A DNA stretch of 64,000 nucleotides from an uncultured Fibrobacterota bacterium (GCA_963753345.1 CAVWBU010000018.1:32001-96000); one strand, 5' to 3'; counted from the stretch's first letter, positions 60 to 46,694 are shown. Made by a program: numbers and translations. The notes: generated by a model not told the origin, from the sequence alone.

Positions 60-465
60 GGGGGGAGGTATCCCCCTCGCTCCGGTCCGGCCCGCTCCCT
101 CAAATAATTACATAATTTCAAACGCGTGCCGGTCCTCCGCTACCCCCTCCTGGGTGCACCCCTTGACAGAGCGGTTGCAAAACCAAACACCTGTGCGGGG
201 GCACCCACGAGCAGCGGTTGAAAAAAAGCCGAACAAGTTGACGGTTGCCAGTTGACAGATAAATGCCAAGCGTATGCTGATCGGCGCAAGAAGATCAATT
301 GACAAAAGCAATTCCTGTTGCCGCGCGTTAGGGGCGACCGGAGGTCCCGCCGAAGCGGGATGCCGCCCGGACCCGGCCGCGTACCCGCGGCATAGGGCTG
401 TGGCGGCCCGAGGGCGAGCCCGAGACCGGAGGGAGAACCGACCCCGCGTAGCGGGGGAACGCCCA
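60..465 (-). repeat. Bipartite structured intergenic element, copy 1 (full)
   Basis: Reverse strand begins TGGGCGTTCCCC, contains CCCTAACGCGCGGCAACAGGAAT and GGGTGCCCCC...GGGGTGCACCCAGGAGGGGGTAGCGGAGGACC, and ends in hairpin GGGGGA-N4-TCCCCC. The same blocks recur in the other copies. Confidence 0.9.
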
Positions 466-573
466 TTTTTAATTAATTTTTATCTTCATAGTTTTGTTTG
501 CTGATTCACCCCTGTTTCTTTATATTTTGATCGTACGATGCAAGAATAACAAACTATTGAAAAGGAGACCATC

Positions 574-1719
574 ATGATTTTCAGACGATCCGGCATCGTA
601 ATTGTCGCGGCGGTCCTCGCTCTGGCGTCCGGCGCATACACGGTTAGTGCCCAGACATGGGACACGCTTCACAAATCGGAATATTCGGTGTGGGTGACGC
701 CGGATTACAACCTGGCCGCCTGCACCGCCTACGCAAACAACCTTGACTCGGTGGCAACCGAGCTCGACAAGGCGATCCCGCTCATCGTGCAGTATCTGGG
801 AATTGCGCCGCCGGAAAAGCCGCAGAGGGTCGAGATCGATTCGAACACAGCCGGCATGGGCGGTTGGTCCTCCGGCGGGGATGTCGGGTATTTTATCTCC
901 GATTTCTACGGTCGCCCGACTTTCAGCGACGGCCTCCGGTGGAAACGGGGCGTGATCATCGGCGAGGTGATCAACTCGACCACGGGCGCGGTGAGCGGCG
1001 ACTGGCCCCGCGACTGGTGGTGCGACGACGTATGGTATTTTCCGGGTTTCGTGGCCGGCGAGCTGCTCAAGCAGACCGTCGACACCGCATTCGGAAACTA
1101 CTGGCTTGCAAGCGAGAAATACCCGACGTATCCGGTATACAATATCTTCAAGGGCCTGCTCACGGAATTCGGCTGGACGTTTTACAAGAATTTTTTCGCG
1201 TCCGTTCTCGCCGACACCGTGCATTGGAACAACATCGGCGCGAACCCTTCACAGATAAAGACCGACTATGTGATCGCCTATATGAGCCTTGCCGCGGGCC
1301 GGAACCTCGGCGCGACATTCGACAGCGCAAACGTCGCTGGCGCGGATTCTGTGGAGATCGGCGCGATCATGAGCGTCGAAGAGCGGCTCCGCGTGGCGAC
1401 ATCGCAGAAACTCAAGGTCGCCACGGCATGGGCCGATTACCGCAGCGGCAACTACGCTGCGGCGAAACACATTCTGGACAGCCTGGGTGTGGCGGGAGTC
1501 CTCCATGATGGTTTTGTCAAGGACAGGGGAATATCCGGCAGAGTGCCGGTAAGCGTTATAGTGTATTCGCTGAAAGGACAGGTCCTGTATTCCGCGTCGG
1601 AAAGCAAATTCGATGGCGCGATGTTGAACAGGTTATGCGGCGGAAAGATGGTCGTCGTCAGGTATGTGTTTGATGACGGATTGACGTATAGTTCAAAGCG
1701 GTTTATCTCTAGAAATTAA
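574..1719 (+). CDS. Secreted hypothetical protein with T9SS-CTD-like C-terminus
   Basis: RBS AAGGAG, signal peptide ending VSA-Q, C-terminal VIVYSLKGQVL...SSKRFISRN. Confidence 0.8.
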   Translation: MIFRRSGIVIVAAVLALASGAYTVSAQTWDTLHKSEYSVWVTPDYNLAACTAYANNLDSVATELDKAIPLIVQYLGIAPPEKPQRVEIDSNTAGMGGWSSGGDVGYFISDFYGRPTFSDGLRWKRGVIIGEVINSTTGAVSGDWPRDWWCDDVWYFPGFVAGELLKQTVDTAFGNYWLASEKYPTYPVYNIFKGLLTEFGWTFYKNFFASVLADTVHWNNIGANPSQIKTDYVIAYMSLAAGRNLGATFDSANVAGADSVEIGAIMSVEERLRVATSQKLKVATAWADYRSGNYAAAKHILDSLGVAGVLHDGFVKDRGISGRVPVSVIVYSLKGQVLYSASESKFDGAMLNRLCGGKMVVVRYVFDDGLTYSSKRFISRN

Positions 1720-1739
1720 TGTTACAGTTATAAGAAGAA

Positions 1740-2180
1740 TTGGGCGTTCCCCTCGCTGCGTTCGGGTCGGTTCTCCTTCCGGTCTCGGCCTCCGGCCTCG
1801 GGCTGCCTGCCACGAGGGCCCTGCGGGCCGTAGTCAGGCAGCACCGCGCTTTGGCGCGGCCTCCAGTCGCCCCTAACGCGCGGCAGAGGGAATCTATTCT
1901 GTCAATTTACTGTTCTTACGCCAATCGGCATACGCTTGGAATTTACTGTCAACTGTCAACCGTCAACTTGTTCATGGTTTTCTTCTCAACTATTCAACGT
2001 TTCAACGCTTTTTCTTCTCAACCGCTCTCCCTGGGTGCCGCCACAACAATGCAGGGTCTCGCAGCTGCTTTGTCAAGGCGGCTACCCGAGAGGGGGGTAG
2101 CGGAGGACCGGTCGCGCATAATCACAAAGCCGGTTTGTAAAGTTGCGCGACCGGGCCGCAGCGAGGGGGAAACTTCCCCC
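1740..2180 (+). repeat. Bipartite structured intergenic element, copy 2 (full)
   Basis: Module X 1740-1880 (TTGGGCGTTCCCC...CCCTAACGCG), linker GGAATCTATTCTGTCAA, TCAAC-rich spacer, module Y 2033-2180 ending GCGAGGGGGAAACTTCCCCC. Confidence 0.9.
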
Positions 2181-2212
2181 ACTTTGAAGTATTTAAATTC
2201 TTTTTCGATACT

Positions 2213-3397
2213 TTATTTCGGAATTGCATTCTTAATATCCTCGATCAGGTCCTCCGTGTTCTCCACGCCGAGCGCGAGCCGGATAAGCCCGTCTTTTATG
2301 CCCACGGCCAGGCGCTCCTTGCGCGTGTAGTCGTAGTAGCTTATCGAGGCCGGATGGGTGATGAGCGATTCGACCCCGCCGAGGCTTGGGCCGATGTTGA
2401 TGATCTGCAGCGCGGACAGAAATTTGTGCACGTACTGCACGTTGTCCCTGACTTCAAAGGTGACCACGCCGCCAAAGCCCTTCATCTGGCGCATTGCCAC
2501 GTCGTGGTGCGGATGGCTTGCAAGGCCGGGATAATACACGCGCCGGATTGCCGGGTGGGCTTCGAGGAATTCGGCGACCGCCTGGCCGTTTTCGTTGTGG
2601 CGCTTCATGCGCAGCTCAAAGGTCTTGAGCCCGCGGATGAGGAGGTACGAGGAATGCGGATCGATCACGCCGCCGGTCACCTTGAGGTAATCCCGAATGG
2701 GCGAGGTGAGTTCCTTTTTGCCAAGCACCACGCCGGCAAGAAGGTCGTTGTGCCCGCCCAGGTACTTGGTGGCGCTGTGGATCACGAGGTGCACGCCGAA
2801 ATCGAGCGGCCGCTGGTTGTAGGGCGTTGCGAACGTGCTGTCCGAAATCACCATGATGTCCGGCCGCGACGAAAAAATGGTCATGAGCCGTTCGAGGTCC
2901 ATGATGTTGAGATACGGATTGGTGGGCGACTCGGACAGAAAAATGCGGGTGTTCTTCCGTATCGCGCGCTTGATCGCGTCGTAATCGCACATTTTGACCA
3001 CGGTGCAGGCGATGTCGAACTTGATAAGCCTGGTCTTGCAGAAATCGAACGTCCGCTTGTAGGCGTCGTCGGTGACGATCATATGATCGCCGGCGTTGAG
3101 CAGCGCGAACAGCGACGTGGTGAGAGCGCTCATGCCCGAGGAGAAAAGGACCGCGTCCTCCGCGGCTTCGAGCGCAGCCAGCTTTCCTTCCGCGGCATAT
3201 TGCGTGGGATGGCCGTACCGGCCGTATTCGTAGCGGGTCTTCGCGCCTTGGGCAAGCTCCCGGATTTCCTTGGTGTTCTTGAAAATAAACGTGGAGCTCT
3301 GCACGATGGGCGTGGTGATGGCGCCGTACTCGTTGTACCGGACCTCTCCGGCATGCACGGCAAGCGTCGAAAGACCCATGCTTTTCTTCTTGGACAT
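2213..3397 (-). CDS. PLP-dependent trans-sulfuration enzyme (cystathionine gamma-synthase/lyase family)
   Basis: YGRYGHPT, SSGMSA, ESPTNP, DSTFATP, PLP-lysine motif HSATKYLGGHND, SLGGVESL. Confidence 0.93.
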   Translation of the reverse strand: MSKKKSMGLSTLAVHAGEVRYNEYGAITTPIVQSSTFIFKNTKEIRELAQGAKTRYEYGRYGHPTQYAAEGKLAALEAAEDAVLFSSGMSALTTSLFALLNAGDHMIVTDDAYKRTFDFCKTRLIKFDIACTVVKMCDYDAIKRAIRKNTRIFLSESPTNPYLNIMDLERLMTIFSSRPDIMVISDSTFATPYNQRPLDFGVHLVIHSATKYLGGHNDLLAGVVLGKKELTSPIRDYLKVTGGVIDPHSSYLLIRGLKTFELRMKRHNENGQAVAEFLEAHPAIRRVYYPGLASHPHHDVAMRQMKGFGGVVTFEVRDNVQYVHKFLSALQIINIGPSLGGVESLITHPASISYYDYTRKERLAVGIKDGLIRLALGVENTEDLIEDIKNAIPK

Positions 3398-3475
3398 ACT
3401 GTTGCTCCGATGATGAGAAAGGTTTTCGCGATTATTGACAAAAGCGATGCTGATTGTCGGCCATTTGCAAACCCG

Positions 3476-3820
3476 CTATCCCGGCGGCCATCCCAGTTCG
3501 CGTCCCGCAAGGATATGCGCGTGCAGGTGCGGCACGAGCTGGCCCGCGTGCTCGCCCGCATTGATCACAAGGCGGTAGCCGTTTTTCGCCAGTCCCTGGC
3601 CCGAAACCGTCTTCGCGATTGCTTCAAAAAAGTTCTTCATAACGTCCATCTTCTGCGCCGGAATGTCCTGCACGGTCGGGAAATGCTCCTTTGGTATCGC
3701 CACGAGGTGCACCGGCGCCGCGGGGTTGATGTCCTTAAAGACAAGCGTGCTTTCGTCTTCGTACACTTTTGATGATGGGATTTGTCCGGATACTATTTTA
3801 CAAAAAATGCAATCTGACAT
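3476..3820 (-). CDS. hinT: Histidine triad (HIT) nucleotide-binding protein
   Basis: CIFCKI N-terminus, FKDINP, GQLVPHLHAHIL triad; start moved to ATG 3820 downstream of a GGAG RBS. Confidence 0.92.
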   Translation of the reverse strand: MSDCIFCKIVSGQIPSSKVYEDESTLVFKDINPAAPVHLVAIPKEHFPTVQDIPAQKMDVMKNFFEAIAKTVSGQGLAKNGYRLVINAGEHAGQLVPHLHAHILAGRELGWPPG

Positions 3821-3853
3821 TTTCAATTCTCCTTTTTAAATAATCAAAAAAGA

Positions 3854-4510
3854 TTGGGCGTTCCCCTCGCTCCGCTCGGGTCGGTCTCCCTGCGGGCTCG
3901 GCTGTTCGCCTCGTTGCCGGACCGCCCTATGCCTGTCGGCCGGGTCGGCCGGCAATTCGCTCCTGCTCACCCTCCGGTCCACCTAACGCGCGGCAACAGG
4001 AATCTATTCTGTCAACCTCATCTTTACGCCAATTGGCATTCGCAGAACTGTCGCCTCACCCCGGCCGCTGTTGCGGCCACCCCTCTCCCTACAAAATAAG
4101 ATTCTATATTTTCTCCCTCTCCCCGTGGGAGAGGGCGGGGTGAGGTTGGAGAGGGGTAACGTGCATTGTTCTCTTCATATTCCCGGGGCGTTGCCCCGGG
4201 CTATAAATATTGCGCCACGATGTGGCTGAAAAACAAGAATGATACATGAAAGATGGAATACAGAATTCCACCGTTGCCGATTGTCTACTGCGCTTTGCTG
4301 GTTTTCAACTTCTCAACTACTCAACTTTCTCAACTATTCTCCGTGGGTGCCCCCACACAGGTGCTTGGTTTTGCAACCGCTCCCTCAAGGGGTGCACCCA
4401 GGAGGGGGTGTGGGCCCGGACAACCGGCGTGCTTTCTGTTCTCAGGACGAATGACTATTCGCCAAAATCAACACGCCGGTTGGCTGGGCCCCAGGGGGAT
4501 ACCTCCCCCC
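3854..4510 (+). repeat. Bipartite structured intergenic element, copy 3 (full, with nested REP-like palindromes)
   Basis: TTGGGCGTTCCCCTCGCTCCG...CACCTAACGCG at the start, GGGGGATACCTCCCCC at the end; nested CCCTCTCCCCGTGGGAGAGGG and CCCGGGGCGTTGCCCCGGG palindromes. Confidence 0.9.
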
Positions 4511-4557
4511 ATATATAATGTCTTAATTATATAATATAAATTGTATTTTCTAACCAA

Positions 4558-5037
4558 ATGAAAACCCCTTCAGACCCGAAGCCCATAAAGGTCCTTGCCC
4601 AGAACCGCAAGGCGTTTCACGACTTCGAAATCCTTGAAAAAGTCGAGGCAGGCATTGCGCTGCTCGGCGCCGAGGTGAAGTCGCTGCGCGAGGGCGGGAT
4701 CTCGCTTGCCGACTGCTTTGCCACGTGCGAAAACGGCGAGCTGTTCGTGCATCACCTGCACATAAGCCCCTATCAGCAGAAGGGGTTCAGCGTCGCCGAA
4801 CCGTACCGGAAACGCAAGCTGCTGCTTCACAAGAGCCAGATCGTGCGGCTGGCCCTGGACGTGGAAAGAAAACATCTTACGATAATACCGCTTAAGGTAT
4901 ATTTTGATAAACAATGGGTCAAAATGGAACTCGGGCTGTGCCGCGGCATGAAAAAGTTTGACAAACGTGAAAAAATCGCAGCCGAGGAATCCAAGAGGCG
5001 TCTTGCCCAGCTCATGAGGACCCGCGGAAAACGGTGA
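4558..5037 (+). CDS. smpB: SsrA-binding protein SmpB
   Basis: NRKAFHDF, EAGIALLGAEVKSLR, RKRKLLLHK, GMKKFDKRE. Confidence 0.97.
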   Translation: MKTPSDPKPIKVLAQNRKAFHDFEILEKVEAGIALLGAEVKSLREGGISLADCFATCENGELFVHHLHISPYQQKGFSVAEPYRKRKLLLHKSQIVRLALDVERKHLTIIPLKVYFDKQWVKMELGLCRGMKKFDKREKIAAEESKRRLAQLMRTRGKR

Positions 5038-6311
5038 TCTTGGCTCCACACAAGCATAAACGCTTTGCCGCCGGCTCCCTTGCGGGAGCAGGCGTTTTTG
5101 TCATCATCATGGCATTCTGCGCAATTGCGGCCGGCCCGCGGCTTGTCAACGAACTGTCCGGCAAGGAGCGGCCCCTCGCCGTTGTCGCCCGCAACGGGAC
5201 CGCGTGCGTGTCGCTCACCGACGTCTGCGACGGTCTCGGGCTCGCCTGGAAATGGGACTTTAGCGCGGAAAAGCTCACGTGCTCGGCAAAGGGGCTGCGG
5301 CTCGCCTTTGTCCAGGGCATGCCGTTCTATCTTGTCAACGATACGCTCCGCCAGATGCCCGCCGAACCCGTCCGCGTCGGCGGCCTGCTCTATGCGCCCG
5401 CCGTGATGCTGGCCTCGGTCTTTTCCCGTGCAACCGGCGATTCCCTGCTCTGGCGCGAGGAGGATTCGGCCATGGTCGTGTCGGCCCGCGTCGCGGGCCC
5501 GGCCGCGGAAAAGCCTCCTGCCGATACCGCCAAGGTCGCAAAGGCCCGCGACACTTTGGCGCGGCCGCATGACACGGTCACCCGGTCGAAACAGCCGCAG
5601 CAGGAGGTGGTGAGGACCATCGTGATCGATCCGGGGCATGGCGGCATGGACCCGGGCGCGATAGGCCAGAATGGCATCGAAGAAAAGAAAGTGGTGCTCG
5701 ACATCGCGCTTGCGCTGCGCGATCTGTTCAAAAAGAAGACAAAGCTTACCGTGTATCTCACCCGCGATGCCGACCGGTTTGTTCCCCTGGTGGACCGCAC
5801 GAAGTTTGCAAACGAGAAGAAGGCCGACATCTTCGTGAGCATACACGCGAACAGCATCGAGGGGAACAAGAAGAAGAAGGACGGAACGCGCGGCTACAAG
5901 GTGTATTTTCTTTCCGAGGCGAAAAACGAGGAAGACAAACTGGCGGCCATGCGGGAAAACGCGGTGATCGAGCTGGAAGACAAGACGCATAAGTACGACA
6001 ACCTGCAGGATATCCTGATTCAAATGGCGGGAAACGAGTTTCTTCGCGAGAGCCAGGATTTTTCAATCATGCTCACCGAGACGTTCTCCTCATGCCTCAA
6101 GAGCATTCCGCGTCTGCACCTGGGGATCGGGCAAGCGAACTTCTGGGTGCTCAACGGAACCTACATGCCGTCGGTGCTCGTGGAAGTCGGATTCATCTCC
6201 AACCCGCAGGAAGAAAAGGACCTTAACGATCCTCCGGTGCAGAAATCCATTGCGTCGGGCATTTTCGAGGCGGTGATGAACTTCAAGAAGAAATACGAGG
6301 AAGGCCAATGA
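5034..6311 (+). CDS. N-acetylmuramoyl-L-alanine amidase (Amidase_3)
   Basis: IVIDPGHGGMDPGA, FVSIHANS, PSVLVEVGFISN; GTG start overlaps the smpB stop. Confidence 0.93.
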   Translation: MILAPHKHKRFAAGSLAGAGVFVIIMAFCAIAAGPRLVNELSGKERPLAVVARNGTACVSLTDVCDGLGLAWKWDFSAEKLTCSAKGLRLAFVQGMPFYLVNDTLRQMPAEPVRVGGLLYAPAVMLASVFSRATGDSLLWREEDSAMVVSARVAGPAAEKPPADTAKVAKARDTLARPHDTVTRSKQPQQEVVRTIVIDPGHGGMDPGAIGQNGIEEKKVVLDIALALRDLFKKKTKLTVYLTRDADRFVPLVDRTKFANEKKADIFVSIHANSIEGNKKKKDGTRGYKVYFLSEAKNEEDKLAAMRENAVIELEDKTHKYDNLQDILIQMAGNEFLRESQDFSIMLTETFSSCLKSIPRLHLGIGQANFWVLNGTYMPSVLVEVGFISNPQEEKDLNDPPVQKSIASGIFEAVMNFKKKYEEGQ

Positions 6312-7138
6312 GCGACCCGAGGCCCATCGGCATGTTCGATTCCGGGCTCGGCGGGCTTACGGTGGCACGCGAGGTGTTCCGGTGCATGCCCGGCGAATCG
6401 GTGCTGTACCTCGGCGATACCGCGCGCTGCCCGTACGGCGGCCGCTCCGAAGAAACCATACGCACCTTCGGCATCCAGGATGCCCGTTTCCTCATGGAGC
6501 AGGATATCAAGATGCTCATTGTCGCGTGCAACACCGTGTCGTCGGTGGCGCTCGATTATATACGCGAGGAGATCAACGAGATCCCCGTGGTGGGCGTGGT
6601 GCTTCCGGGAGCGCGCGCGGCCGTCAAGCGCACCACGCGCAGGAAAATAGGAGTCGTGGGAACGGCGGCCACCATCGGAACCGGATCGTACGAGAAGGCG
6701 ATCCATGCCATAGACCCGGATATCAAGACCTATGCCAAGGCCTGTCCGCTGTTCGTGCCGCTGGTCGAGGAAGGATTGCTCGACGCGGACATCACGAAAC
6801 TGGCGGCGCAGCGCTATCTTGCCGATCTTGTCGCAATGGGAATCGACTGCCTGATCCTCGGCTGCACGCATTACCCGCTGCTCCTCGAAACCATCCAGAG
6901 CGCGGTGGGCGGGAGCATCCAGCTGCTCGACAGCGCGCTGTGGGCGGCGCGCGAGGCGCGCGACATCCTGTTCGCCATGCAGGGGCTTAGCGACGGGCGT
7001 GAGGGCGGCATGGCGCATAGCCGCTTTTTTGTGACCGACGTAACGCCGCAGTTCGCGCAGAGCGCGGCGAGGTTTCTGGGTGCGCCGCTGCCGGCCATGG
7101 AAAAAATAGAGCTCGAACAGTTGACAAAAACGATATAA
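6308..7138 (+). CDS. murI: Glutamate racemase
   Basis: FDSGLGGLTV, PYGGRS, VACNT, LGCTHYP. Confidence 0.97.
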   Translation: MSDPRPIGMFDSGLGGLTVAREVFRCMPGESVLYLGDTARCPYGGRSEETIRTFGIQDARFLMEQDIKMLIVACNTVSSVALDYIREEINEIPVVGVVLPGARAAVKRTTRRKIGVVGTAATIGTGSYEKAIHAIDPDIKTYAKACPLFVPLVEEGLLDADITKLAAQRYLADLVAMGIDCLILGCTHYPLLLETIQSAVGGSIQLLDSALWAAREARDILFAMQGLSDGREGGMAHSRFFVTDVTPQFAQSAARFLGAPLPAMEKIELEQLTKTI

Positions 7139-7156
7139 CATCCGCAAGGAGGAACC

Positions 7157-7909
7157 ATGTCTGGTCATTCCAAATGGGCCAAAATCAAAAGGTCCAAGGG
7201 AAACGCGGACGCTGCAAGAGGCAAGATCTTCAGCCGTCTGATCCGTGAAATCACCATTGCCGCGCGCATGGGCGGCGGCAACCCGGACGGAAACCCGCGT
7301 CTCCGCTCCGCAATCGCCTCGGCCCGCACGGCGAACATGCCCAACAAGAACGTGGAAAACGCGATCGCCAAGGGCACGGGAACGCTCGACGGCGTCATGT
7401 ATGAAGAGTTCACCCTCGAAGGGTACGCGCCGGGCGGCGTCGCCGTGCTTGTCGAATGCATGTCGGACAACCGCAACCGTACCGTTTCCGAAGTCCGCCA
7501 CGCCATGACCATGGGCGGCGGCAACCTGGCGGCGGTGAACTCCGTTTCGTGGATGTTCAAACCCCAGGGCGTCATCCTGATTGACACAAAGGCCAAGGAC
7601 GAGGACACCCTCATGGAAGTGGTGCTCAATGCCGGCGCCGACGACATGGCGCTTGACGGCGACGAATACGAGATCACCACGCGGATCGAGGCGTTCGAAA
7701 ACGTGCGCGCGGCGCTGGAAAAGGCCGGCATCACGCCCATCAGCGCGGAACTCACCAAGGTGCCGGACAACATGGTGAAGCTCGACGAGGACAAGGCGAT
7801 CAAGGTGCTCCGCCTCATCGACGAGCTCGACGAGCTCGACGACGCCCAGCACGTCTACAGCAATCTTGACGTGAGTGAAGAAGTGCTCGAAAAATATGCT
7901 AAGGCGTAA
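7157..7909 (+). CDS. yebC: YebC/PmpR family protein
   Basis: MSGHSKWAKIK, NPRLR, EGYAPGGVA, DNRNRT; upstream of ruvC as usual. Confidence 0.96.
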   Translation: MSGHSKWAKIKRSKGNADAARGKIFSRLIREITIAARMGGGNPDGNPRLRSAIASARTANMPNKNVENAIAKGTGTLDGVMYEEFTLEGYAPGGVAVLVECMSDNRNRTVSEVRHAMTMGGGNLAAVNSVSWMFKPQGVILIDTKAKDEDTLMEVVLNAGADDMALDGDEYEITTRIEAFENVRAALEKAGITPISAELTKVPDNMVKLDEDKAIKVLRLIDELDELDDAQHVYSNLDVSEEVLEKYAKA

Positions 7910-7924
7910 TTGAAAAATAATGGT

Positions 7925-8406
7925 GGGGGAGGTTTCCCCCTCGCTCCGGCCCGACACGCACCTTTATATTTCGATGAATTGTCTTATGCGTGTCGGTCCT
8001 CCGCTACCCCCTCCTGGGTGCACCCCTTGAGGGAGTAGTTGCAAAACCAAACACCTATGTGGGGGCACCCGAGGAGAGCGGCTGTACCGAGCACTTTCTT
8101 TACTTTGTGTCTTTGTCACTTCTTGCTATGCGGCGGCACCCACGAGCGATAGTTGGAGGGGGCAGTAGTATGTCCATGCCCCTCTCCAATAGGAGAGGGG
8201 ACGGGGGTGAGGTTGGTCGGACTTGGCGCGAGAAGATTAAATTGACAGAATAGATTCCCTATGCCGCGCGCCAGGCCGGACTGGAAGGTGAGCCATAGCG
8301 AATTGCCGCCTGATCCTTCGCCGTAGGCGACTAGGGACAGGCGGCAACGAGGCCATAGGCCGAGCCTGGAAGGAGGGCCGCCGCCGCGAAGCGGCGGGGC
8401 GCCCAA
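7925..8406 (-). repeat. Bipartite structured intergenic element, copy 4 (full)
   Basis: Plus strand GGGGGAGGTTTCCCCCTCGCTCCG...GGTCCTCCGCTACCCCCTCCTGGGTGCACCCC...TTGACAGAATAGATTCC...GGGGCGCCCAA. Confidence 0.88.
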
Positions 8407-8462
8407 CTCTTATTTTATCTTGTCAAGATGGGAAACGCCCAGCTTTCTTTCCAAATTTTATT

Positions 8463-8960
8463 ATGATAATCATTGGAATCGACCCCGGAACAGCATACAC
8501 CGGTTACGGCGTGATCGAGGCCGAGGCCAACGCAGTGTCCTATGTCGACTGCGGGGTGATCCACATGAGCGCCAAGCTTGACATGCCGGAAAAGCTGGCC
8601 GGGATCTATAGCGGGCTCACCGCCATCATGAAGCGGTACGCGCCGGCGCGCGCGGCGGTCGAGGAGGCGTTCTACGCCAAGAACGTGCACACCACGCTCG
8701 TGCTCGGCCAAGCCCGCGGCGTGGCGCTCCTTGCGGCGCAGCAGTCGGGCGCCGAGGTCGCCGAGTATTCGCCGAGGGAGATAAAGAAACTGGTGACAGG
8801 CAACGGCAACGCCGCGAAAAACCAGGTGGAATACATGGTAAAGATGCTTCTGCGCGTGCCGCAAACGCAGTGCCACGCCGACGCGTTCGACGCGCTGGCC
8901 GCCGCGCTGTGCGATTTCCGCAGCCGGGCCGCCAGGACGCTTGCTGCATTGAGGCGGTGA
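8463..8960 (+). CDS. ruvC: Holliday junction resolvase RuvC
   Basis: IIGIDPGTAYTGYG, VEEAF, LGQARGV, GNGNAAKNQV, DAFDALA. Confidence 0.96.
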   Translation: MIIIGIDPGTAYTGYGVIEAEANAVSYVDCGVIHMSAKLDMPEKLAGIYSGLTAIMKRYAPARAAVEEAFYAKNVHTTLVLGQARGVALLAAQQSGAEVAEYSPREIKKLVTGNGNAAKNQVEYMVKMLLRVPQTQCHADAFDALAAALCDFRSRAARTLAALRR

Positions 8961-8963
8961 CGC

Positions 8964-9569
8964 ATGTTCGATTATGTCAAGGGCATTCTGGCCGAGAAGT
9001 CCGTGGCCGGCGCCGTGGTGGAGACCGCGGGCGTGGGCTACGAACTGTCAATTCCCCTGTCGACGTTCGAGGCGCTCGGCGCGGAAGGCTCGCCGGTTAA
9101 GCTCTTTACGCACCACTATGTGCGCGAAGACGCGGAGAAGCTGTATGGGTTCTCGTCGAAGGCAGAGCGGGAAATCTTCCGCCAGCTCATCGCCATAAGC
9201 AACATAGGTCCCAAGACCGCCATAAGCATTTTATCCGGCGTCTCGCCGCAGGAGCTTGTCTCATGCGTCAACAGGGGCGACACGACACGGCTCCGCAAGA
9301 TCCCGGGCGTTGGCGACAAGACCGCGTCGCGGCTCATTATGGAGCTCAAGGGCAGGCTCGGAGCGGCCGCCGTAGCAGCGCCGCAGGCCGGCCCTCACGG
9401 CGAGGCGGTTGACAAAGGGGCAGGCGAACGGGGCCAGGCGTTCGACGCCATGGTGTCGCTGGGCTACACCGACAAGCAGGTGCAGGCTGCCCTGGCAAGA
9501 GTGGAATCCGTGATCGAGGCGGGCGCGCCGGTTGAGGAATGGATCAAGAAGGCGCTGCAGGTGATATGA
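8964..9569 (+). CDS. ruvA: Holliday junction branch migration protein RuvA
   Basis: GVGYEL, VREDAEKLYGF, two HhH motifs (IGPKTA, PGVGDKTA). Confidence 0.96.
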   Translation: MFDYVKGILAEKSVAGAVVETAGVGYELSIPLSTFEALGAEGSPVKLFTHHYVREDAEKLYGFSSKAEREIFRQLIAISNIGPKTAISILSGVSPQELVSCVNRGDTTRLRKIPGVGDKTASRLIMELKGRLGAAAVAAPQAGPHGEAVDKGAGERGQAFDAMVSLGYTDKQVQAALARVESVIEAGAPVEEWIKKALQVI

Positions 9570-9575
9570 CAAGAG

Positions 9576-9604
9576 GTTGACAGTTTGCAGTTGACGGTTG
9601 ACAG
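9576..9604 (+). repeat. Degenerate heptamer tandem repeat (GTTGACA-like)
   Basis: GTTGACA GTTTGCA GTTGACG GTTGACA between ruvA and ruvB. Confidence 0.7.
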
Positions 9605-18242: not shown

Positions 18243-18316
18243 GCCCCAGTAGCTCAGTTGGATAGAGCACCGGTTTCCTAAACCGGTTGTCACTGGTTCA
18301 ATTCCGGTCTGGGGTA
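18243..18316 (+). tRNA. tRNA-Arg (anticodon CCT), CCA not encoded
   Basis: Acceptor GCCCCAG/CTGGGGT, D-arm GCTC...GAGC, anticodon arm CCGGT-TTCCTAA-ACCGG, T-loop GGTTCAATT. Confidence 0.95.
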
Positions 18317-25364: not shown

Positions 25365-25888
25365 GCGGGGGAAGGTTCCCCCTCGCTGCGGCCCTGCGGT
25401 CCTCCGCTACCCCCTCGTGGGTAGCCCCCTAGAGAGTTGATTTGCGAGAAAGCAACTTCAGCTGCGGGGGCACCAAGAAAAATTGTAGAGATTGCGAAGA
25501 ATGAGCGGATAAGTTCGGATTGAAAAAAGCAGAAAAGAATGGCATTGCGAGCGGATCTCCCGAAGTCGCACGTGGAATATTTTGCAGTTCAGCCACGTAG
25601 TAGCGCAATATTTATAGCCCGGGGCAACGCCGCGGGAATACGAAGAGAACTATATGCATCTCCCCTCTCCACGGGTGGAGAGGGGGGCCGCGACAGCGGC
25701 CGGGGTGAGGCGACGGTCCTGCGTAAGCGAATCGGCGCAAGAAAAAGTAGTTGACAGAATAGAATCCTGTTGCCGCCGCGTTAAGGCGGGACTGGAAAAA
25801 TGGTCCCGCTGATGCGGGATGCCGCCCGGACCCGCCTTTTGTAGAGACGCAGCGGCGCTGCGCCTCTACATATCCGGGGGAACGCCCA
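25365..25888 (-). repeat. Bipartite structured intergenic element, copy 5 (module X partly replaced by a GTAG-type palindrome)
   Basis: Plus strand GGGGGAAGGTTCCCCCTCGCTGCG...TTGACAGAATAGAATCCTGTTGCC...GTAGAGACGCAGCGGCGCTGCGCCTCTAC...GGGGGAACGCCCA. Confidence 0.85.
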
Positions 25889-25941
25889 GATTACTATTTT
25901 GCCATGACAACCTCAAACAGGTGCGCCCTGACAGATGCACG

Positions 25942-29667: not shown

Positions 29668-29904
29668 GGACCGCGGGCGGCCTGTGTATTGATATAGTAT
29701 TTCCTGCCAATTGACTTCCACAATTAATACATGAAATAATTAAAATGCCTTTGGGAGCTTCGCGGGGTGCAGCGTTGTTGGGCCTGTGGCGAGACCGGAA
29801 CAACAGTTGCGCGCACCCTTGGAGCCGCAGTTGTGAAGCAAAAACATTATGTTCGTTCATGCCCGGAGTATTTTCGGATTGCTGATTGAAATAAACTGTC
29901 GCTT

Positions 29905-30048
29905 CTTGGTGCCCCCGCAGCAATGCTACTGGCTTGCCACTGCACTACCAAGGGGGCTACCCAAGAGGGGGCAGCGCAGGACCGGCGCGGAATAAGCTGT
30001 ACTTTGATAATATGAGCGCCGGGCCGGAGCGAGGGGGAAACTTCCCCC
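29905..30048 (+). repeat. Intergenic element copy 6 (module Y only)
   Basis: GGTGCCCCC...GGGGGCTACCCAAGAGGGGGCAGCGCAGGACC...GCGAGGGGGAAACTTCCCCC. Confidence 0.85.
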
Positions 30049-30075
30049 TTTAAATACTTGTATATTGTATTGTCT

Positions 30076-32883: not shown

Positions 32884-32939
32884 GTGGGGTCCTTGAATTA
32901 AGGTTATCTGAAACAGTAATTGATTAACGATAAGAGAAA

Positions 32940-33489
32940 TTGGGCGTTCCCCTCGTCTTCGTCAAGACTCAGGCTCGGGTCGGCCGTCCTTCCGGTCTCG
33001 GCCGCAGGCCTCGGGCCGCCTCGGCCCTATGGCCCACAGGGCCGGGTCCGGGCGGCATCCCGCTCTGGCGCGGACCTCCAGTCCGGCCTAACGCGCGCAA
33101 ACCGTTATTGTCATCAGTCAATTTATTCTCGCGCCAATCGGAATGCTCAAGACCGTCGCCTCACCCCGGCCGCCATGGCGGCCACCCCTCTCCACAAGTG
33201 GAGAGGGGAATACAATCAGCATTTTGGACTCCCTTCTCCACGCTGTGGAGAAGGGCTGGGGATGAGGCGAAACGATTGCGCGACCAATCGGCTCCTCAAC
33301 TTTTCAACTATTCAACTTCTTCTTCTCAACTCCTTGGCGTTTCAACTATTCAACGTTTCAACTTTTCAACTATACTCCTTGGGTGCCCCCGCACAGGTGT
33401 CTGGTTCTGCCACTGCTTCCACTTGGGGTGCACCCAGGAGGGGGTAGCGGAGGACCGCAGGGCCGCAGCGAGGGGGATGCTTCCCCCGC
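32940..33489 (+). repeat. Bipartite structured intergenic element, copy 7 (full)
   Basis: TTGGGCGTTCCCC...GGCCTAACGCG, nested CCCTCTCC palindromes, TTCAAC repeats 33295-33371, end GGGGGATGCTTCCCCC. Confidence 0.9.
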
Positions 33490-33503
33490 ACAAATATTAT
33501 TAT

Positions 33504-36290: not shown

Positions 36291-36363
36291 GGTTCCCCCC
36301 TTTTTTACTGATTAAAAACTATGCGTGCTGCGCACTGAGATGTGTCGATGGTTGCTCTGCTCC

Positions 36364-36474
36364 AACCTCATCCCCCGGCCCCTTCTCCCGCAGGAGAAGG
36401 GGAGTAAGACGACCAAACTGAAATTCCCCTCTCCCTGTGGGAGAGGGGTGGCCGCGTCAGCGGCCGGGGTGAGG
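36364..36474. repeat. Paired CCCTCTCCC-type REP-like palindromes
   Basis: CCTCATCCCCCGGCCCTTCTCCCGCAGGAGAAGGG and CCCTCTCCCTGTGGGAGAGGGG...GGGGTGAGG; relatives are nested in element copies 3, 4, 5 and 7. Confidence 0.75.
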
Positions 36475-36508
36475 TTACACGAAATCGAAGGTCACTCCCT
36501 TTGCCGCA

Positions 36509-39316
36509 TCATCTCATCATCATAACCCGCTTCACATACCAGTCCTGCCCATTCACCGTGCAGCGGATAAGGTACACGCCGTTGCTCATCGCGTTGCCAC
36601 CCGCCGCACCAGCCCTGAGAGGAATCGCATGCCACCCGCTTTGTTGCTGGGCGTTCGGAACCCGGCACACGACCCTTCCGCTTGCGTCAAGAATGTCAAC
36701 GCTGACAAACGCTTTTTCAGTCATATAATATCTCACCATACCTCCTGTCATGGAGATGGCAAGCTTCGGCATTGACAAAGGCGCAACGGCGCGGACCGGC
36801 GCGTACGTTGCAACAGTGTCGCTGAAAGGATACACGGTGAACGACGTTGCCGCGGCCGCCCCCAGTCCCGGCGATGTCGCGCTCACGGTCACAACACCGG
36901 GAGTAAACGTTGCGCGCACCGCCACCTTGCACTTGCCGCCTTCGGCGGCAAGCTCGGGATCCATTGGGGAATGATAATAAAGCGGCATTCCGGTGGTGAC
37001 AAACTGGTCGCTGCCGCCGCGATAGCTGCCTGCCGCGCCGGAAACGCTGAAGGTGACAAAATGGCTGTCGGTCGGGCACCAGTTGCCGTTGGCATCAACC
37101 ACGGTCGCAAGAATAAAGGCGGCGTCCGAGCCATCGGCCATGATCTTGAACGTTTCGCCGTCCGGCTTCACCAGCGGCGGTTCAACGCTCAGAACAATGT
37201 GATCCGGAGCTCCGGCGGTGACTTTCTGGTCGGAGCACACCACGTTTCCGTTTGCGTCAAGGCCCTGGGCCGTCACCGTGCCGGCCGCCCAGGTAACGTC
37301 CCAGTAACACTCGAACGGAAGCTGCGTGGATGCGGCGTCGTTGGCGTCGCCGGTGCCGGTCCACGGGTTGGGCGTCTTGACACCCTGGCTGACGCCATTC
37401 ACCAGCAGCTTGACGCTCGGGCAGTTGCTGAACGCAAACTCCCGCACCGAACCCGAGCGGTTCCAGTGATGGGAAAGCGCGACAACCGGTTCGAGCGAAT
37501 AGGGCCTCCAGCAGGCCTTGTAGGCGTAGTACAGGAATTTCGGGATCCGGCTGAAATCGACCATGGACGATCCGAATGAGCGGCAGGGCGACTTGCCGTC
37601 TGCAAACGCCCTGTCCTCTCCCGGCGTTTCGGAGAAATACCATTGACAAAGGCCGAAGCAGTTCGCCTGGATGCTCTTGCGCCAGTTCTGGAGGAATTCC
37701 GCGGCATGATAGATTTCCCAGTCGTAGGCCGCCCGCTCCGAAGCACGGCCCCACGCCTCGGCGCCAAAAGCCGGGAGTTGCGGCTGTTGGCTATGCACTC
37801 CTATTTCACATCCGGTAAGGGTGCACGAGGCAATGTCGAGCGGCGACCACGGGGACCCGCGCACATTCTGCCTGCGGGGAGCAAGAGAGTCCCATGTTGT
37901 GCCGATGGCCCGTAACTGGTCGCACAACGTCGGATCGCAGGCGCCGTTGGACGTCTCCCAGGCAAGGATCGACGGATTGTTCCTGTCGCGAATCACCATG
38001 TCCCTGTGGACTTCCTGCTTGAGTCCCGCTTGATACGCAGAATAGTTGCCGGTGGCCCAGTTGTTTTCGCCGTCGCCGCTCGGCTGAATTATCATGACGC
38101 CGTACGCGTCGCATGCCGCAACAAAAACAGGGCCTTCCGCGGAATGTCCCGGCCGCCACAGGTTGCCGCCGCACCCGGCGGTCAGCTTGATGTCGCGCCA
38201 CACCTGTTCGGCGGGTATGGCGGTGCCGAGGGCCGGATAATCGTATCTGCCGGAAGCGCCCCAGAGAAGGTGCTTGTGGCCGTTGATATAGGGGAAATTC
38301 TGGTCCCAGGTGATGGTGCGGATCCCCAGCGGCGTTTCAAAAACGTCAAGCGTGGTCGCCCCGGCTTTCACAATATGATACACCTTGTACATCTTCGGCG
38401 TGCCGAACGTGCTGTTGTTGGGATACCACAGTTGCACCGGCGACGCGTCGCCCTTCTGGTCGAACACGAAGTTCGCGCCAGCGGCCACGGTCTGCGCCTG
38501 GTCCATGGACAACACCACGCTGTTGTTCGACGGATCAACCACTTTTGTGGTGAGAGAAACGGTCTGGCTTGCAGCGCTTTCGTTCTGAACGTTGGTCAGG
38601 ATCCGCAACGTGGCCGAGGTGCCGTTTGTCGCAAGGGTGGCCGCATAGGTTCCCCATTGGTTGACAACTGAAAAGACATTGGCCGGCACATGAACCTTGT
38701 CGGTGATATGCATCCACACCGGCCGGTAAATGCCCTGATCGGCCGAGCCGAACCGGAACACCAGAGAGAAGCCCGGCCAGGTGAGGAATGCGCTCTGGCC
38801 CACCCGGACGGCAAGGACATTGTCTGCGCCGCCGAAATTCAAATTGTAACCGGTGAGGTCCACAATAAAGCCGATAAATCCCAGCACATGCGTTGCCTGG
38901 GGATTGTAGGCGCTGTTTCCCGGAATGAGCGTGCCGTTGCAGTACACCTGACATCCCACGTGCACGCCTTCGAATTCGACGAAAATTTTTCTCCCCGAAT
39001 AGTTGTTGTCCAGCGTAAAGTGCTTCCGGTACCAGCAGGTGCCTTCGAACATCGAGCCGTCGCCGCCGCCGCTGATCTGGTTTTCGAAGGTGTCGGTGTC
39101 GTTCCACGTGTGGGGAATCCCGACGTTTTTCCATCCGGCGTCGTTAAACGCGACGGCCTGGGCGCCCGCGGGGTCGGACCGCTGGAATTTCCACGGCGTG
39201 GCGCCGAAATTGATTTTGACGCGGTTGCTTTGCTCAGGAACGTAGGTTTCGGCAAAACACACCGCCGTCACCAGGATCGCCATCAAAAGCGGGGTTGTAA
39301 AAAGTTGTGTGCGCAC
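36509..39316 (-). CDS. Glycoside hydrolase family 2 with T9SS-CTD-like C-terminus, paralog 3
   Basis: Same motifs; GTG start after AAGGAGGG. Confidence 0.88.
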   Translation of the reverse strand: MRTQLFTTPLLMAILVTAVCFAETYVPEQSNRVKINFGATPWKFQRSDPAGAQAVAFNDAGWKNVGIPHTWNDTDTFENQISGGGDGSMFEGTCWYRKHFTLDNNYSGRKIFVEFEGVHVGCQVYCNGTLIPGNSAYNPQATHVLGFIGFIVDLTGYNLNFGGADNVLAVRVGQSAFLTWPGFSLVFRFGSADQGIYRPVWMHITDKVHVPANVFSVVNQWGTYAATLATNGTSATLRILTNVQNESAASQTVSLTTKVVDPSNNSVVLSMDQAQTVAAGANFVFDQKGDASPVQLWYPNNSTFGTPKMYKVYHIVKAGATTLDVFETPLGIRTITWDQNFPYINGHKHLLWGASGRYDYPALGTAIPAEQVWRDIKLTAGCGGNLWRPGHSAEGPVFVAACDAYGVMIIQPSGDGENNWATGNYSAYQAGLKQEVHRDMVIRDRNNPSILAWETSNGACDPTLCDQLRAIGTTWDSLAPRRQNVRGSPWSPLDIASCTLTGCEIGVHSQQPQLPAFGAEAWGRASERAAYDWEIYHAAEFLQNWRKSIQANCFGLCQWYFSETPGEDRAFADGKSPCRSFGSSMVDFSRIPKFLYYAYKACWRPYSLEPVVALSHHWNRSGSVREFAFSNCPSVKLLVNGVSQGVKTPNPWTGTGDANDAASTQLPFECYWDVTWAAGTVTAQGLDANGNVVCSDQKVTAGAPDHIVLSVEPPLVKPDGETFKIMADGSDAAFILATVVDANGNWCPTDSHFVTFSVSGAAGSYRGGSDQFVTTGMPLYYHSPMDPELAAEGGKCKVAVRATFTPGVVTVSATSPGLGAAAATSFTVYPFSDTVATYAPVRAVAPLSMPKLAISMTGGMVRYYMTEKAFVSVDILDASGRVVCRVPNAQQQSGWHAIPLRAGAAGGNAMSNGVYLIRCTVNGQDWYVKRVMMMR

Positions 39317-40823: not shown

Positions 40824-40835
40824 AGAGAGGGGAAC

Positions 40836-41987: not shown

Positions 41988-42016
41988 GATTTTTGCAACT
42001 GGAAGAAGAAATTAAA

Positions 42017-42165
42017 TTGGGCGTTCCCCTCCCCCTCGACTTCGCTCGGGGTCGGGTCGGTTCTCCTTCCAGCTCGGCCTTTGGCCTCGTTGCCGGACCA
42101 CCCTATGCCTGTCGGCCGGGTCGTCCGGCAATGCGCTCTCGCGCACTTCCAGTCGCCCCTAACGC
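42017..42165 (+). repeat. Intergenic element copy 8 (module X only)
   Basis: TTGGGCGTTCCCC...GGGTCGGTTCTCCTTCC...CCAGTCGCCCCTAACGC. Confidence 0.85.
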
Positions 42166-42199
42166 AAAGAGCAAATACGCAATCGCTGTTTCCTGCATT

Positions 42200-42479: not shown

Positions 42480-42527
42480 GGGAGTGCGCCGGCATTGTCG
42501 CAAACGTAAACCAAAGGAGTCTGTCCT

Positions 42528-43487: not shown

Positions 43488-43513
43488 TTTTTATTTGGTA
43501 CGGAGTCTTTCCT

Positions 43514-44446: not shown

Positions 44447-44531
44447 TGAAGAAAAGAATTTTCTCGCAAAGACTTGTGCCTGCCTGTCGAAGCATCGCTA
44501 AGGGCGCAACGAAGGGCGAATGGAGGACGTG

Positions 44532-46117
44532 ATGTTTTCAAAAAAGTCTCATTTTGATCCTGTTTGTGTCGGTGATATTGACCTTGACCATCACTGCCCC
44601 AGCCACGAGCCCAATCCATTCCCAAGCCCGGCGCGGACTTCACCTCAATCACCAATAACGGCGCCTGGACCTGGTATGGAAACCCGGTCGCGGTTTATTA
44701 TGAGGGTAAATACAAGAAAACCTATATGGGGTGGATATCCAATGGCGGCACTATTTCGGTGGGCTCCTACAACCACGTAACCGGCGATACTGCCACCAAA
44801 GTCATAAAAACGGGTTACCAGGTCGACGACCACTGCCATCCCAGCTTGCTCATGCGGCCCGACGGAAGGCTCATGGTGTTTTTTACCGGCCACGATGGCG
44901 GCACAATCAGCCTCTATATTTCCACCGATCCCGAAGACGTTTCCCAATTCAATCAGGAAACCGGCATCTCAGACGTCGGCCTTGTCTATTGTTATCCAAA
45001 CCCGATGTGGCTCAGCGCGGAGGGCGACAGCGGAAGGCTCTATGTTTTTTACCGTAGTATGCATACAAATCCGTGTTTTACCTACAGCGACGATTGGGGA
45101 AAGACTTGGAAACCCACAAGACAATACTATGCGAACTTTGACAACCCGGATCTGGATAAGGTATACGTAAACTATTGCTCAAACGGAAAAGACGAGATCC
45201 ATATGGCCATCGAAAAGGGCCATCGCGCCGGGTATTGCCCTCTTTATTATATGAAATACAAAAAAGGCGCATTTTACCAGGCGAGCGGCGCGCTGATAGC
45301 AACCGTTGACAGTCTGCCCATCCTTAACACGAAGATAGACACGCTGCAGGATCCCAAACTTTACGGCTGCCACGGCTCGTCATGGGACGTCGCGCTTGAC
45401 AACGCCGGAAATCCGGTCGTGGTCTACGACCAGTTCAAGGACGGGGCCAATCATCAGTATTACTATTTCCACTGGATGGGAACGTCGTGGTTAAAGAGCC
45501 TGCTGGTGAACAGCGGCGCCAACATGGGCGGCGAAGACGGATTTGCCGGCGGCATTACGCTCGACCACGAAAACACAAACAACGTCTACATGTCGCGGCA
45601 GATAGACGGGATGCATGAAATAGACAAATGGACTACTTCCGACGGCGGGACCACATGGGATTCCATGGCCATCACACGCGGCTCGGCGAAAAAGAACACC
45701 CGTCCCATCGTTCCGATCGGGCACAAGCCCTATGGCAAGCTCGATGTTATCTGGATGTACGGCGACTACACCGGGTGGGCCGGGGGATTCAACACGGCGG
45801 TCAAGATGTATCCGTTCAACGAGACCGTTGCGGCTATGGAATCCAACCGCGTGAAAGCTTCACATATGCAATCGGATATTTCCGCACATTCGCACGGCCT
45901 TTTTGTATCGCTGTCCGATCCGAAATCATCGTCGCTCAAAATCTTTGCTTTAAACGGCAGGATGGTGGTTGATTTGACAACTATGATAAGAGGCATGAGT
46001 GCGAACCGGGTATTCATCCCGTTTTCACGGATCAAGCTCGGGGTGGGGAGTTATCTGGTTTCGTTCAACAACGGGAAGACACAGTCGGTGAATAAAATGG
46101 TGTATTGTTTGAAGTAA
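44532..46117 (+). CDS. BNR-4 repeat protein with CTD-like tail; N-terminus broken by two apparent single-base insertions
   Basis: GGAGGA RBS + ATG 44532. Removing one base from A6 (44540-44545) and one from C4 (44597-44600) gives a signal peptide joined to NNGAWTW...DDHCHP, YCYPNP, YSDDWGKTW, TSDGGTTW. Confidence 0.75.
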
Positions 46118-46203
46118 AATTCGCGCTCAAAGAATGCAAGTTTCTTTAAATACAAAATATAAGGCTGGGCGCCCCGCAGCTTCACAAAACAGAAGAGACT
46201 CTT

Positions 46204-46694
46204 GCGGGGGAAGTATCCCCCTAGCTACGGCCTCCTCGGCCTTTGGCCTGCGGTGACGTTGTCATTTCATTCCTTAAGGGTATGGTAATGGTGCTTCGCA
46301 CCTTCTAGTATGTCGTTTGCCCTTTCGCTACCCCCTCGTGGGTAGCCGCCTTGACAAAGCGGTTGCGAGACCACGCATTGCTGTGGCGGCACCCGAGAAG
46401 AGTAGTTGATAAGTTGAGGAGTTGAGAAGAAAAGCGTTGAAAAATGCGAAGAAGAAGCCTGGCTGATTTATTGCAGATGCAGATTAGCGCTAGACAAGGT
46501 AATTGACTGAATAGAATTCTGTTGCCGCGCGTTAGGTGGACCGGAGGGTGAGCTGAAGCGAATTGCCGGCCGATCCCGGCCGCAGGCGATTGGGACGGTC
46601 CGGCAACGAGGCCGAACGGCCGAGCCCGCAGGGACGACGCCTCGAAGCACCCGAAGGGGTGGACCGACCCGAGTGGAGCGAGGGGAACGCCCAA
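46204..46694 (-). repeat. Bipartite structured intergenic element, copy 9 (full)
   Basis: Plus strand GGGGGAAGTATCCCCC...CGCTACCCCCTCGTGGGTAGCCGCC...GTTGCCGCGCGTTAGG...GCGAGGGGAACGCCCAA. Confidence 0.9.

Follow-up and report, generated by a model that had tools for sequence, protein, structure and literature searches.

What is the two-part repeat that occurs nine times between positions 60 and 46,694 of a 64,000-nucleotide (nt) stretch of an uncultured Fibrobacterota genome, and by what means could it have become so numerous? The stretch (GCA_963753345.1 CAVWBU010000018.1:32001-96000), hereafter the window, is G000:C18:32001-96000 in our numbering, where G000 is the whole assembly (4.5 Mb, 56% GC, contamination 4.8%) and C18 the contig. 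Each full copy joins two unrelated modules, X and Y, through a linker and a variable spacer. At a probability of roughly 0.4, we read X and Y as paired priming signals, one per strand, similar to the single-strand initiation sites (ssi) and single-strand origins (sso) of mobile replicons, which would spread by copy-over recombination. The observations behind this reading are the pairing, polarity and folding of the modules, the strands on which their DNA-type loops lie, their plasmid and phage relatives, their replacement in place and the absence of target duplications. On this computational reading, the element would be ssi-like in place and form and would resemble BIMEs (bacterial interspersed mosaic elements) in its genomic behaviour; by the tests run, it belongs to neither group.

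Seven full X+Y copies, one Y-only copy and one X-only copy are located in the window by a motif scan and by profile coordinates, which confirms all nine places and orientations given by an earlier sequence-only reading (Table 1). The Y-end pattern was found 7 times in the window, compared with 0.00 expected from 100 dinucleotide shuffles. In four of four public DNA runs from two studies, the summed contig depth over the elements of window positions 1-9000 greatly exceeds that over the flanking genes, although this depth is drawn from contigs and hence gives no copy number. The repeat is no assembly artefact of G000. Profile searches seeded with 215 X and 169 Y copies detect 426 X and 292 Y matches in G000, which group into 452 loci (198 X+Y, 128 X alone, 73 Y alone, 26 X with inverted X, and 27 others), part of these counts being co-binned strain duplicates on overlapping contigs. 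Full copies range from 302 to 671 nt, and the paired elements with their margins occupy approximately 3.8% of the genome. Adjacent modules (n=266) are primarily back-to-back, as X+Y or as X+inverted X (240 cases), with 25 in tandem and 1 face-to-face, and an inverted X can replace Y at the same locus (C16/C4 versus C5).

The description of the element as always intergenic and without a conserved open reading frame (ORF) agrees with the genome-wide picture. By our own hexamer-based gene calling, 6 of 718 module matches share more than 40 nt with a called gene, and the long X...Y intervals (9 of 15 inspected) contain unrelated host genes. Other parts of the description required revision. The linker is present, exact in some copies only. 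The spacer carries the reported TCAAC arrays as passenger sequence, 52 of the 77 genomic TCAAC arrays falling in elements, and both the spacer and the variable hairpins gather other repeats, among them 15 of 53 CCCTCTCC palindromes. The proposed imperfect terminal inverted repeat is a short common word only, and the two ends are different modules. A sigma-70 promoter in the linker was considered and rejected, as the reverse strand has a TTGACA-like word with no suitably spaced -10 box (by eye), and the idea that the outer flanks pair with each other, as they seem to do in a few copies, was dropped. Separately, 11 lone X starts without an X body occur in G000, several followed by other short tandem repeats; two of them are of opposite orientation types on different contigs. 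Many small contigs among C2-C55 duplicate larger ones at 93-100% identity (co-binned strains), and their ends often lie inside elements.

X and Y are two independent, widespread modules, each found alone elsewhere, whose pairing is typical of this lineage. The sequence-only reading had likened X to the Flavo-1 motif (RF01705), which is listed as an RNA motif of Bacteroidetes (Weinberg et al. 2010; excerpt of PMC2864571). Kinship stands, while membership does not. The reverse complement of X shares the end motifs and the three-way outer junction with shorter copies from other replicons (compact X), 2 of 19 scanned loci of which pass the RF01705 cut-off of 42 bits (54.6 and 52.1 bits). The start and end words of the window X recur in 50 of 110 viral loci that have the start pattern, and compact X is found on 99 plasmid records. 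In contrast, the window X fails the Flavo-1 model: among the 150 of 456 candidates of G000 that were scored, RF01705 matches 0 at E<=1, and it matches none in the window. The likeness therefore rests on shared end motifs and a shared stem, not on a profile match, and by these tests X is a relative of Flavo-1 and not a member. The interior of the window X is different, larger and multi-stem, and X is paired with Y; moreover, compared with the listed Bacteroidetes RNA, the relatives here reside on plasmids and phages of several phyla and have DNA-type loops. Y also contains the twin GNAGCG(G)A internal-loop word of Flavo-1. Rfam scans of the window (gathering threshold) and of positions 1-4600 (E<=10) assign no family to X or Y, and a scan of 20 Y loci likewise returns none.

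Multiple copies of Y are present in Treponema, Fibrobacter, Chitinivibrionales/Chitinispirillales and a Prevotellaceae bin, among others (at least 119 loci). The middle motif is present in 112 of 119 Y loci, with X upstream in 1 clear case among the matches listed. X+Y pairs also occur in a Chitinivibrionales record (L349), and the proteins of the window include Fib_succ_major and type IX secretion system (T9SS) tails, both of which point to Fibrobacterota. Y is further found on alphaproteobacterial plasmids and in 7 microviruses, and compact X and compact Y are single copies in single-stranded DNA (ssDNA) phage genomes of 4-7 kb. Exact patterns give X counts of 160/103/37/0/33/51 and Y counts of 145/93/7/0/19/23 in G000-G005, the six genomes of the genus, and detect any Y in 16 and any X in 12 of 61 related genomes. 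In the open-access literature, we found no description of Y, of the X+Y pair, or of Flavo-1 as a DNA signal; subscription papers and the older papers on primosome assembly sites could bear on this novelty. On six viral contigs (L153, L154, L167, L188, L191 and L193), Y edges a recurring small-gene cluster in spirochaete-like mobile elements, with DnaJ-like and antirestriction-type genes (by eye) and a further conserved stem-loop region following it.

Covariation bears out the claim that the element is structured, both in the window-type modules and in the compact relatives. Mutual information selects complementary pairs in 228 X copies (e.g. X 28:45, 98:118, 92:125, 61:152 and 132:145) and in 244 Y copies (e.g. 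Y 49:89, 117:150 and 163:172), together with non-pairing columns linked to subtype. The closing stem of X, a long-range helix across approximately 150 nt, changes on both sides: TT/AA in 205 copies, CC/GG in 74 copies, and ten other listed combinations in 1-4 copies each. It is matched in 281 of 286 typed copies. Each stem type is seen with either interior subtype, so that the pairing persists when interiors recombine. The named structure of compact X is 94.7% paired, with a covariation score of 0.152 against 0.042 for shuffled alignments (29 of 33 sequences), and that of compact Y is 90.0% paired, with 0.180 against 0.087 (28 of 38 sequences). In both cases, 0 of 500 shuffles reach the score and all slid controls are exceeded, for sequences that are related and structures that were drawn from the same alignments.

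The hairpin loops bear on which molecule folds. Perfect hairpins with C(GNA)G triloops number 321 on the X-reverse strand versus 11 on the X-forward strand (360 copies), 54 on the forward versus 0 on the reverse strand of Y (253 copies), and 14 versus 0 in 42 compact X. UNCG/GNRA tetraloops number 0-15 in the modules. Other intergenic DNA contains 62-65 such triloops among 3096, without preference for a strand, together with 136-149 GNRA loops. In DNA, the GNA triloop is a motif of extra stability. G-T mismatches are as frequent as A-C mismatches in the tested helices (68/65 and 8/12), with no G-U excess on either strand. These loop and wobble statistics point to ssDNA as the probable folded form and speak against the non-coding RNA that the sequence-only reading had offered. 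From the triloop asymmetry, the predicted working strand is therefore the reverse strand of X and the forward strand of Y, which are opposite strands with their 3' ends outward. The argument from RNA versus DNA loops has been applied likewise to STAXI, a structured motif that lies close to ssb, antirestriction and integrase genes and whose possible role as ssDNA was weighed (excerpt of PMC2864571). STAXI differs as a repeated pseudoknot with UUCG loops that was judged to be RNA (same excerpt), and the Rfam scans gave no match to it here.

A transcribed role has to be weighed against these loops. One alternative is a structured element of 3'-untranslated RNA, with a role in termination, stability or read-through control, or else a small RNA, as was first proposed for Flavo-1, amplified by drift and gene conversion. 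It would be consistent with outer ends that lie a median of 27-30 nt from the stop codon of a gene directed at them. In the chromosome, genes run towards the Y end more often than expected (122 of 190, p 6e-6; 53 of 69 for lone Y), X follows co-oriented genes in 12 of 18 viral contigs of the non-ssDNA type, and X lies opposite to the virion strand in three microvirus lineages. However, TNC loops and pyrimidine mismatches, not RNA tetraloops, characterise the strand that would be read in such transcripts, the orientation flips in most ssDNA phages, and Flavobacterium matches to Flavo-1 are reported to be indistinctly sense, antisense or outside transcribed regions (excerpt of PMC9723704). We regard an RNA role as improbable.

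The strand of the modules on phages and plasmids bears on the priming reading. The predicted strand of X is the gene (virion) strand in 8 of 11 micro- and inovirus contigs (2 opposite, 1 mixed). Of the 18 other viral contigs, 1 agrees, 12 are opposite and 5 are mixed. The contrast gives a Fisher p of 0.0007 on unmixed contigs and approximately 0.006 on rough lineages, in counts that are non-independent and with phage identity assigned by Pfam and confirmed for a subset. The predicted strand of Y is the virion strand in 2 of 2 checked among the 7 microviruses. Three further annotated microviruses give one agreement and two disagreements, so that with L198/L271 roughly 7 lineages are for and 3 against. 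The reversed microvirus X looks as if it had been inserted independently, or as if the other strand were packaged. In the microviruses L198, L271, L505 and L506, compact X has the orientation opposite to that in other microviruses and occupies different gene junctions. A purine-rich internal-loop word of the GNAGCG type, similar to that of the modules, is present in the F-G region of phiX174 and downstream of the ColE1 origin. The ColE1 stretch is its primosome assembly site (pas). Excerpts of PMC3606162 and PMC9865509 locate the phiX174 primosome site between F and G and state that microviruses need a hairpin for minus-strand priming. On plasmids, 12 of 12 compact-X matches in 7 fetched stretches lie on the template strand of adjacent ssb/ardC/ardA-type or relaxase genes. 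Compact Y, in 3 of 3 fetched plasmids, has the same placement with respect to neighbouring relaxase genes or genes of the leading-region type, and ssb or ardC frequently adjoins the modules. Signals of the ssi/Frpo type have been described near such plasmid genes (excerpts of PMC7690428 and PMC11541004). The plasmid orientation fits the T-strand, as far as a comparison confounded by gene direction allows. In G000, the strand of X divides 133 versus 86 with respect to GC skew, compared with 1359 versus 1036 for genes.

With the folded form taken as DNA and as active in priming, the following course is proposed. A host enzyme, for which RNA polymerase, DnaG or PriA are candidates, would prime complementary-strand synthesis at a folded single-stranded module; PriA and two DnaA genes are present in G000. 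With a signal on each strand and synthesis proceeding inward from whichever outer end was primed, either strand, once exposed, could be made double-stranded, and the interval that the two ends enclose could be copied in one piece. The modules would spread and turn over by the copying of one over another, not by an encoded transposase, and resident nucleases of the RAYT family (considered below) may contribute new sites. As in ssi, sso and primosome assembly sites, a folded intergenic sequence lies, with the exceptions given above, on the entering strand of ssDNA phages and near plasmid ssb and antirestriction genes. Known ssi occur once or a few times on a mobile replicon, whereas here hundreds of back-to-back pairs occupy a chromosome, and the sequence comparison with characterised primosome assembly sites yields only short common words. 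The two dnaA genes (G000:C47:156799-158106 and C15:146470-147792) are full-length and exceed the TIGR00362 cut-off.

Comparison across genomes and strains shows turnover in place. Orthologous sites are filled or empty across the genus in unchanged gene order (yebC-ruvC, HIT-smpB); the HIT-smpB site, which holds copy 3, is filled in G001, G002 and G004 and empty in G003 and G005. In G001, which is approximately 93% identical in genes, the same orthologous sites carry different subtypes. In 22 pairs of duplicated contigs that are otherwise near-identical, entire modules have been replaced where they stand, and differences per site amount to 11.3% for X, 10.2% for Y, 10.8% for the spacer and 11.9% for the 40-nt flanks, against 2.4% for genes and 6.0% for other intergenic DNA, rates that include misaligned blocks on contigs that may contain assembly errors. 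Flank change is all-or-none: 10 of 24 ends (pairs not independent) have at least 5 differences in 40 nt, and the differences reach 18-26% within 40 nt and at most 4.4% past 60 nt. Patches of 100-130 nt, not whole copies, have near-identical twins at other loci. At 14 loci, two of them duplicates, an X start with half a hairpin is followed by a new A-rich tract and a second X start; module X of copy 4 retains such a 'restart', the outer remnant of a second X start, before ruvC. Approximately 12 short-type X copies have a common 50-nt leader that begins with a Y-end word. In a search for donor-copy flanks, no other locus shared an outer flank of at least 25 nt (261 X and 240 Y ends, with a filter that missed the short-type X subfamily). 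At the HIT-smpB site of G002 (L002, on C27), an insertion sequence with a transposase-like ORF, bounded by CTAG on both sides, lies inside Y just before the terminal hairpin.

The sequence-only reading had proposed a non-autonomous mobile element. Its mobility in the broad sense agrees with the patchy distribution (0-160 copies over six genus genomes) and with filled and empty orthologous sites, and a classical MITE (miniature inverted-repeat transposable element) moved by a DDE transposase through terminal inverted repeats would also be non-coding, 300-670 nt long, present in both orientations and furnished with a short word common to its ends. That form of the idea is already largely refuted and hardly tenable. 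The 140 of 210 full copies that have clean ends show no target duplication, their shared k-mers being equal to those of shuffled pairs. Best matches among full copies have a median identity of 81%, near-identical matches are duplicated contigs, and no full copy of G000 has a near-identical twin at a different locus. Halves stand alone in the genome, single copies occur on plasmids and phages, and the interior structure is conserved, not the ends only.

No candidate mobiliser (IntI, an IntI-like recombinase or RAYT) tracks X/Y, and clustering of neighbours yielded no recurring mobiliser gene among the G000 loci, the 119 Y loci of other genomes or the 50 viral X loci. The integron integrase deserves mention, since copy 1 begins 31 nt past the stop codon of a true intI (TIGR02249, 454 bits) and the intI of G001 also adjoins X+Y. 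X/Y as tyrosine-recombinase sites, that is, attC-like ssDNA hairpins for this integrase or for two further IntI-like recombinases encoded near modules, would explain this adjacency and the closing of X with a GTT/AAC stem; attC sites are likewise variable in sequence and conserved in structure. Yet GTT at the 5' side and AAC at the 3' side reverse the core-word layout of attC, and X/Y are not arrayed with cassettes. Moreover, IntI is present in G003, which has no X/Y, and was not found in G002, which has X/Y; 1 of 5 intI loci of relatives carries a module. Genes of the IntI-like family, present in 23 of 61 genomes, show no correspondence with X/Y and have a module at 0 of 19 foreign loci, and the elements lie in both orientations among conserved housekeeping genes of unchanged order. 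With as many as 452 loci, a position next to any given gene is common, and a role as recombinase sites is very unlikely. Integron integrase homologues are present in 4 of 5 genus relatives, and low-GC cassette-like genes with palindromic spacers lie upstream of intI on the other strand (G000:C18:28000-32029, L007).

The main rival invokes REP-associated tyrosine transposases (RAYTs), which are HUH nucleases. In a mosaic of the BIME or REPIN type, where REP stands for repetitive extragenic palindrome, resident RAYTs would cut and rejoin ssDNA at these structures and so give rise to new copies, exchanged modules and disordered flanks, and X/Y would be large ssDNA substrates, not priming sites. 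RAYT-like genes exist in G000 (C27, C32, C35 and a fragment on C48; NF047646 at 50-59 bits, under the 80-bit cut-off), where a PF01797 search missed them, a false negative, and a motif screen recovered them. Because of that failure, the blanks for reverse transcriptase and archaeo-eukaryotic primase (AEP) in G000 hold only for the family queries used. Two of the three full RAYT-like genes touch X or X-end remnants, that of C35 lying between remnants and that of C32 being followed by X, and RAYT locus L490 of G002 has X on both sides. A REP unit is a GTAG palindrome of 20-50 nt, and TnpA-REP cuts ssDNA at CT (excerpt of PMC8266576). All 24 strict GTAG-type palindromes of the genome lie inside X/Y (30 of 34 with a looser pattern), and outside each outer end a tract of 15-30 nt is pyrimidine-rich on the folded strand. 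The lack of target duplication and the DNA-type loops agree with this rival as well. Like REP, BIME and REPIN elements, X/Y occur in hundreds of intergenic copies near gene ends, as two inverted units with a variable linker, mosaicism and ssDNA hairpins, in a genome with RAYT-like genes.

Against a RAYT mosaic, X/Y are multi-helix modules of 150-200 nt and of two unrelated kinds, in which GTAG palindromes are passengers: approximately 80 of 330 X hairpins are long, and most modules have no GTAG palindrome. RAYT presence (37 of 61 genomes) is out of step with the copy number of X/Y, since G003 has 4 RAYT matches and no X/Y, and no RAYT-like gene was found in G013, G048 and G051, which have 10-17 Y copies. 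Among 29 RAYT loci of other genomes, 1 has X/Y within approximately 1.5 kb, and compact X/Y are single-copy in ssDNA phages. The mosaic is less likely than the priming reading and is compatible with it as a source of new insertions. The RAYT-like genes at C27:259564-260427 and C32:21864-22556 contain REP-like palindromes inside the reading frame, and that at C35:162288-162764 looks internally shortened; upstream of the C27 gene, tandem units of approximately 100 nt (G000:C27:260430-260930) lie beside a small GIY-YIG-like ORF.

Several points weigh against priming, beyond the limits given above for the phage counts and for the difference rates of duplicated contigs. The confinement of GTAG-type palindromes to the elements is unexplained by it, and a priming signal alone gives no account of insertion at new sites. 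In three microvirus lineages (L198/L271, MG945248 and MZ089795), the predicted strand of X runs counter to the genes, where it should never be single-stranded. The plasmid orientation is confounded, since co-oriented genes precede X in 12 of 18 contigs of presumed double-stranded DNA phages as well; the chromosomal genes that point into the Y end fit a 3'-untranslated RNA or terminator equally; and the bias relative to GC skew is weak and may follow gene orientation. Finally, the compact-X profile does not match the window X in G000 (1 output line for the genome), and neither compact profile matches phiX174 (2200-2500, 301 nt only), ColE1 or pAMbeta1.

A bolder form of the priming reading, which we consider doubtful, would make the element a self-priming, protein-free replicative repeat, in which two unrelated priming signals of plasmids and ssDNA phages were joined back-to-back, primed inward by the host and copied in the manner of an amplicon. 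Copies would overwrite resident modules or enter AT-rich gene ends, and the copy-unique purine-rich leaders and abortive 'restart' stubs would be fossil primers.

Table 1. Element modules and adjoining features of the window (strand. denotes none assigned; bits for modules are nhmmer profile scores).
Feature	Position	Strand	Evidence
3' end of integron integrase gene (context, probably incidental)	1..29	+	gene G000:C18:30734-32029, 454 bits on TIGR02249, cut-off 265
Copy 1 module Y	60..223	-	nhmmer 123.6 bits
Copy 1 module X with linker	289..466	-	115.4 bits; full copy 60-466
Copy 2 module X with linker (linker 1890-1905)	1740..1918	+	141.1 bits; start 21 nt past stop codon
Copy 2 module Y	2017..2182	+	113.6 bits; terminal hairpin 2165-2180
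Copy 3 module X, HIT-smpB intergenic region	3854..4027	+	136.1 bits
Spacer of copy 3 (passenger palindromes; short repeats of TCAAC type)	4028..4328	.	profile coordinates
Copy 3 module Y, variant subtype	4329..4510	+	80.4 bits; full copy 3854-4510
Copy 4 module Y, 14-16 nt past yebC stop codon	7923..8085	-	119.8 bits
Copy 4 module X, CC/GG end type	8231..8441	-	128.6 bits; full copy 7923-8441
Copy 5 module Y	25365..25489	-	97.9 bits
Copy 5 shortened module X with GTAG-type REP-like palindrome (25841-25869)	25739..25889	-	53.2 bits for 25739-25838; start motif 25877-25888
Y-only copy	29894..30049	+	111.5 bits
Copy 6 module X	32940..33129	+	118.6 bits; full copy 32940-33489
Copy 6 module Y	33364..33489	+	105.3 bits
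X-only copy	42017..42170	+	86.7 bits
Copy 7 module Y, split by inserted stretch	46204..46410	-	two matches, 25.7 + 74.7 bits
Copy 7 module X with linker	46491..46694	-	138.9 bits; full copy 46204-46694

The window contains other repeated sequence as well. Three tandem paralogous GH2 glycoside hydrolase genes (30076-39316), approximately 70% alike in DNA, have the elements at 29894 and 32940 among them. Coding repeats at 21183-22400 belong to a T9SS-tailed propeller protein of the BNR/Asp-box type, and those at 51207-51998 are three fibronectin-III units of a Fib_succ_major protein. A tRNA gene at 18243-18316 (anticodon CCU by eye) is the sole Rfam match of the window.

Were the self-priming repeat true, Flavo-1 and the undescribed Y would be two cross-phylum families of single-strand origins. 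With the priming reading, an orphan Rfam motif would gain, after 15 years, a function and the right molecule, DNA. Y stands beside it as a second, unlisted motif, conserved from the chromosomes of Treponema and Fibrobacterota to alphaproteobacterial plasmids and microviruses. The modules provide testable candidates for the way in which second-strand synthesis starts on conjugative plasmids and ssDNA phages of hosts other than E. coli. In the genome studied here, the X+Y pairs are hot spots of strain-level change and may form a class of chromosomal repeat whose spread depends on the priming machinery of the host, not on a transposase.

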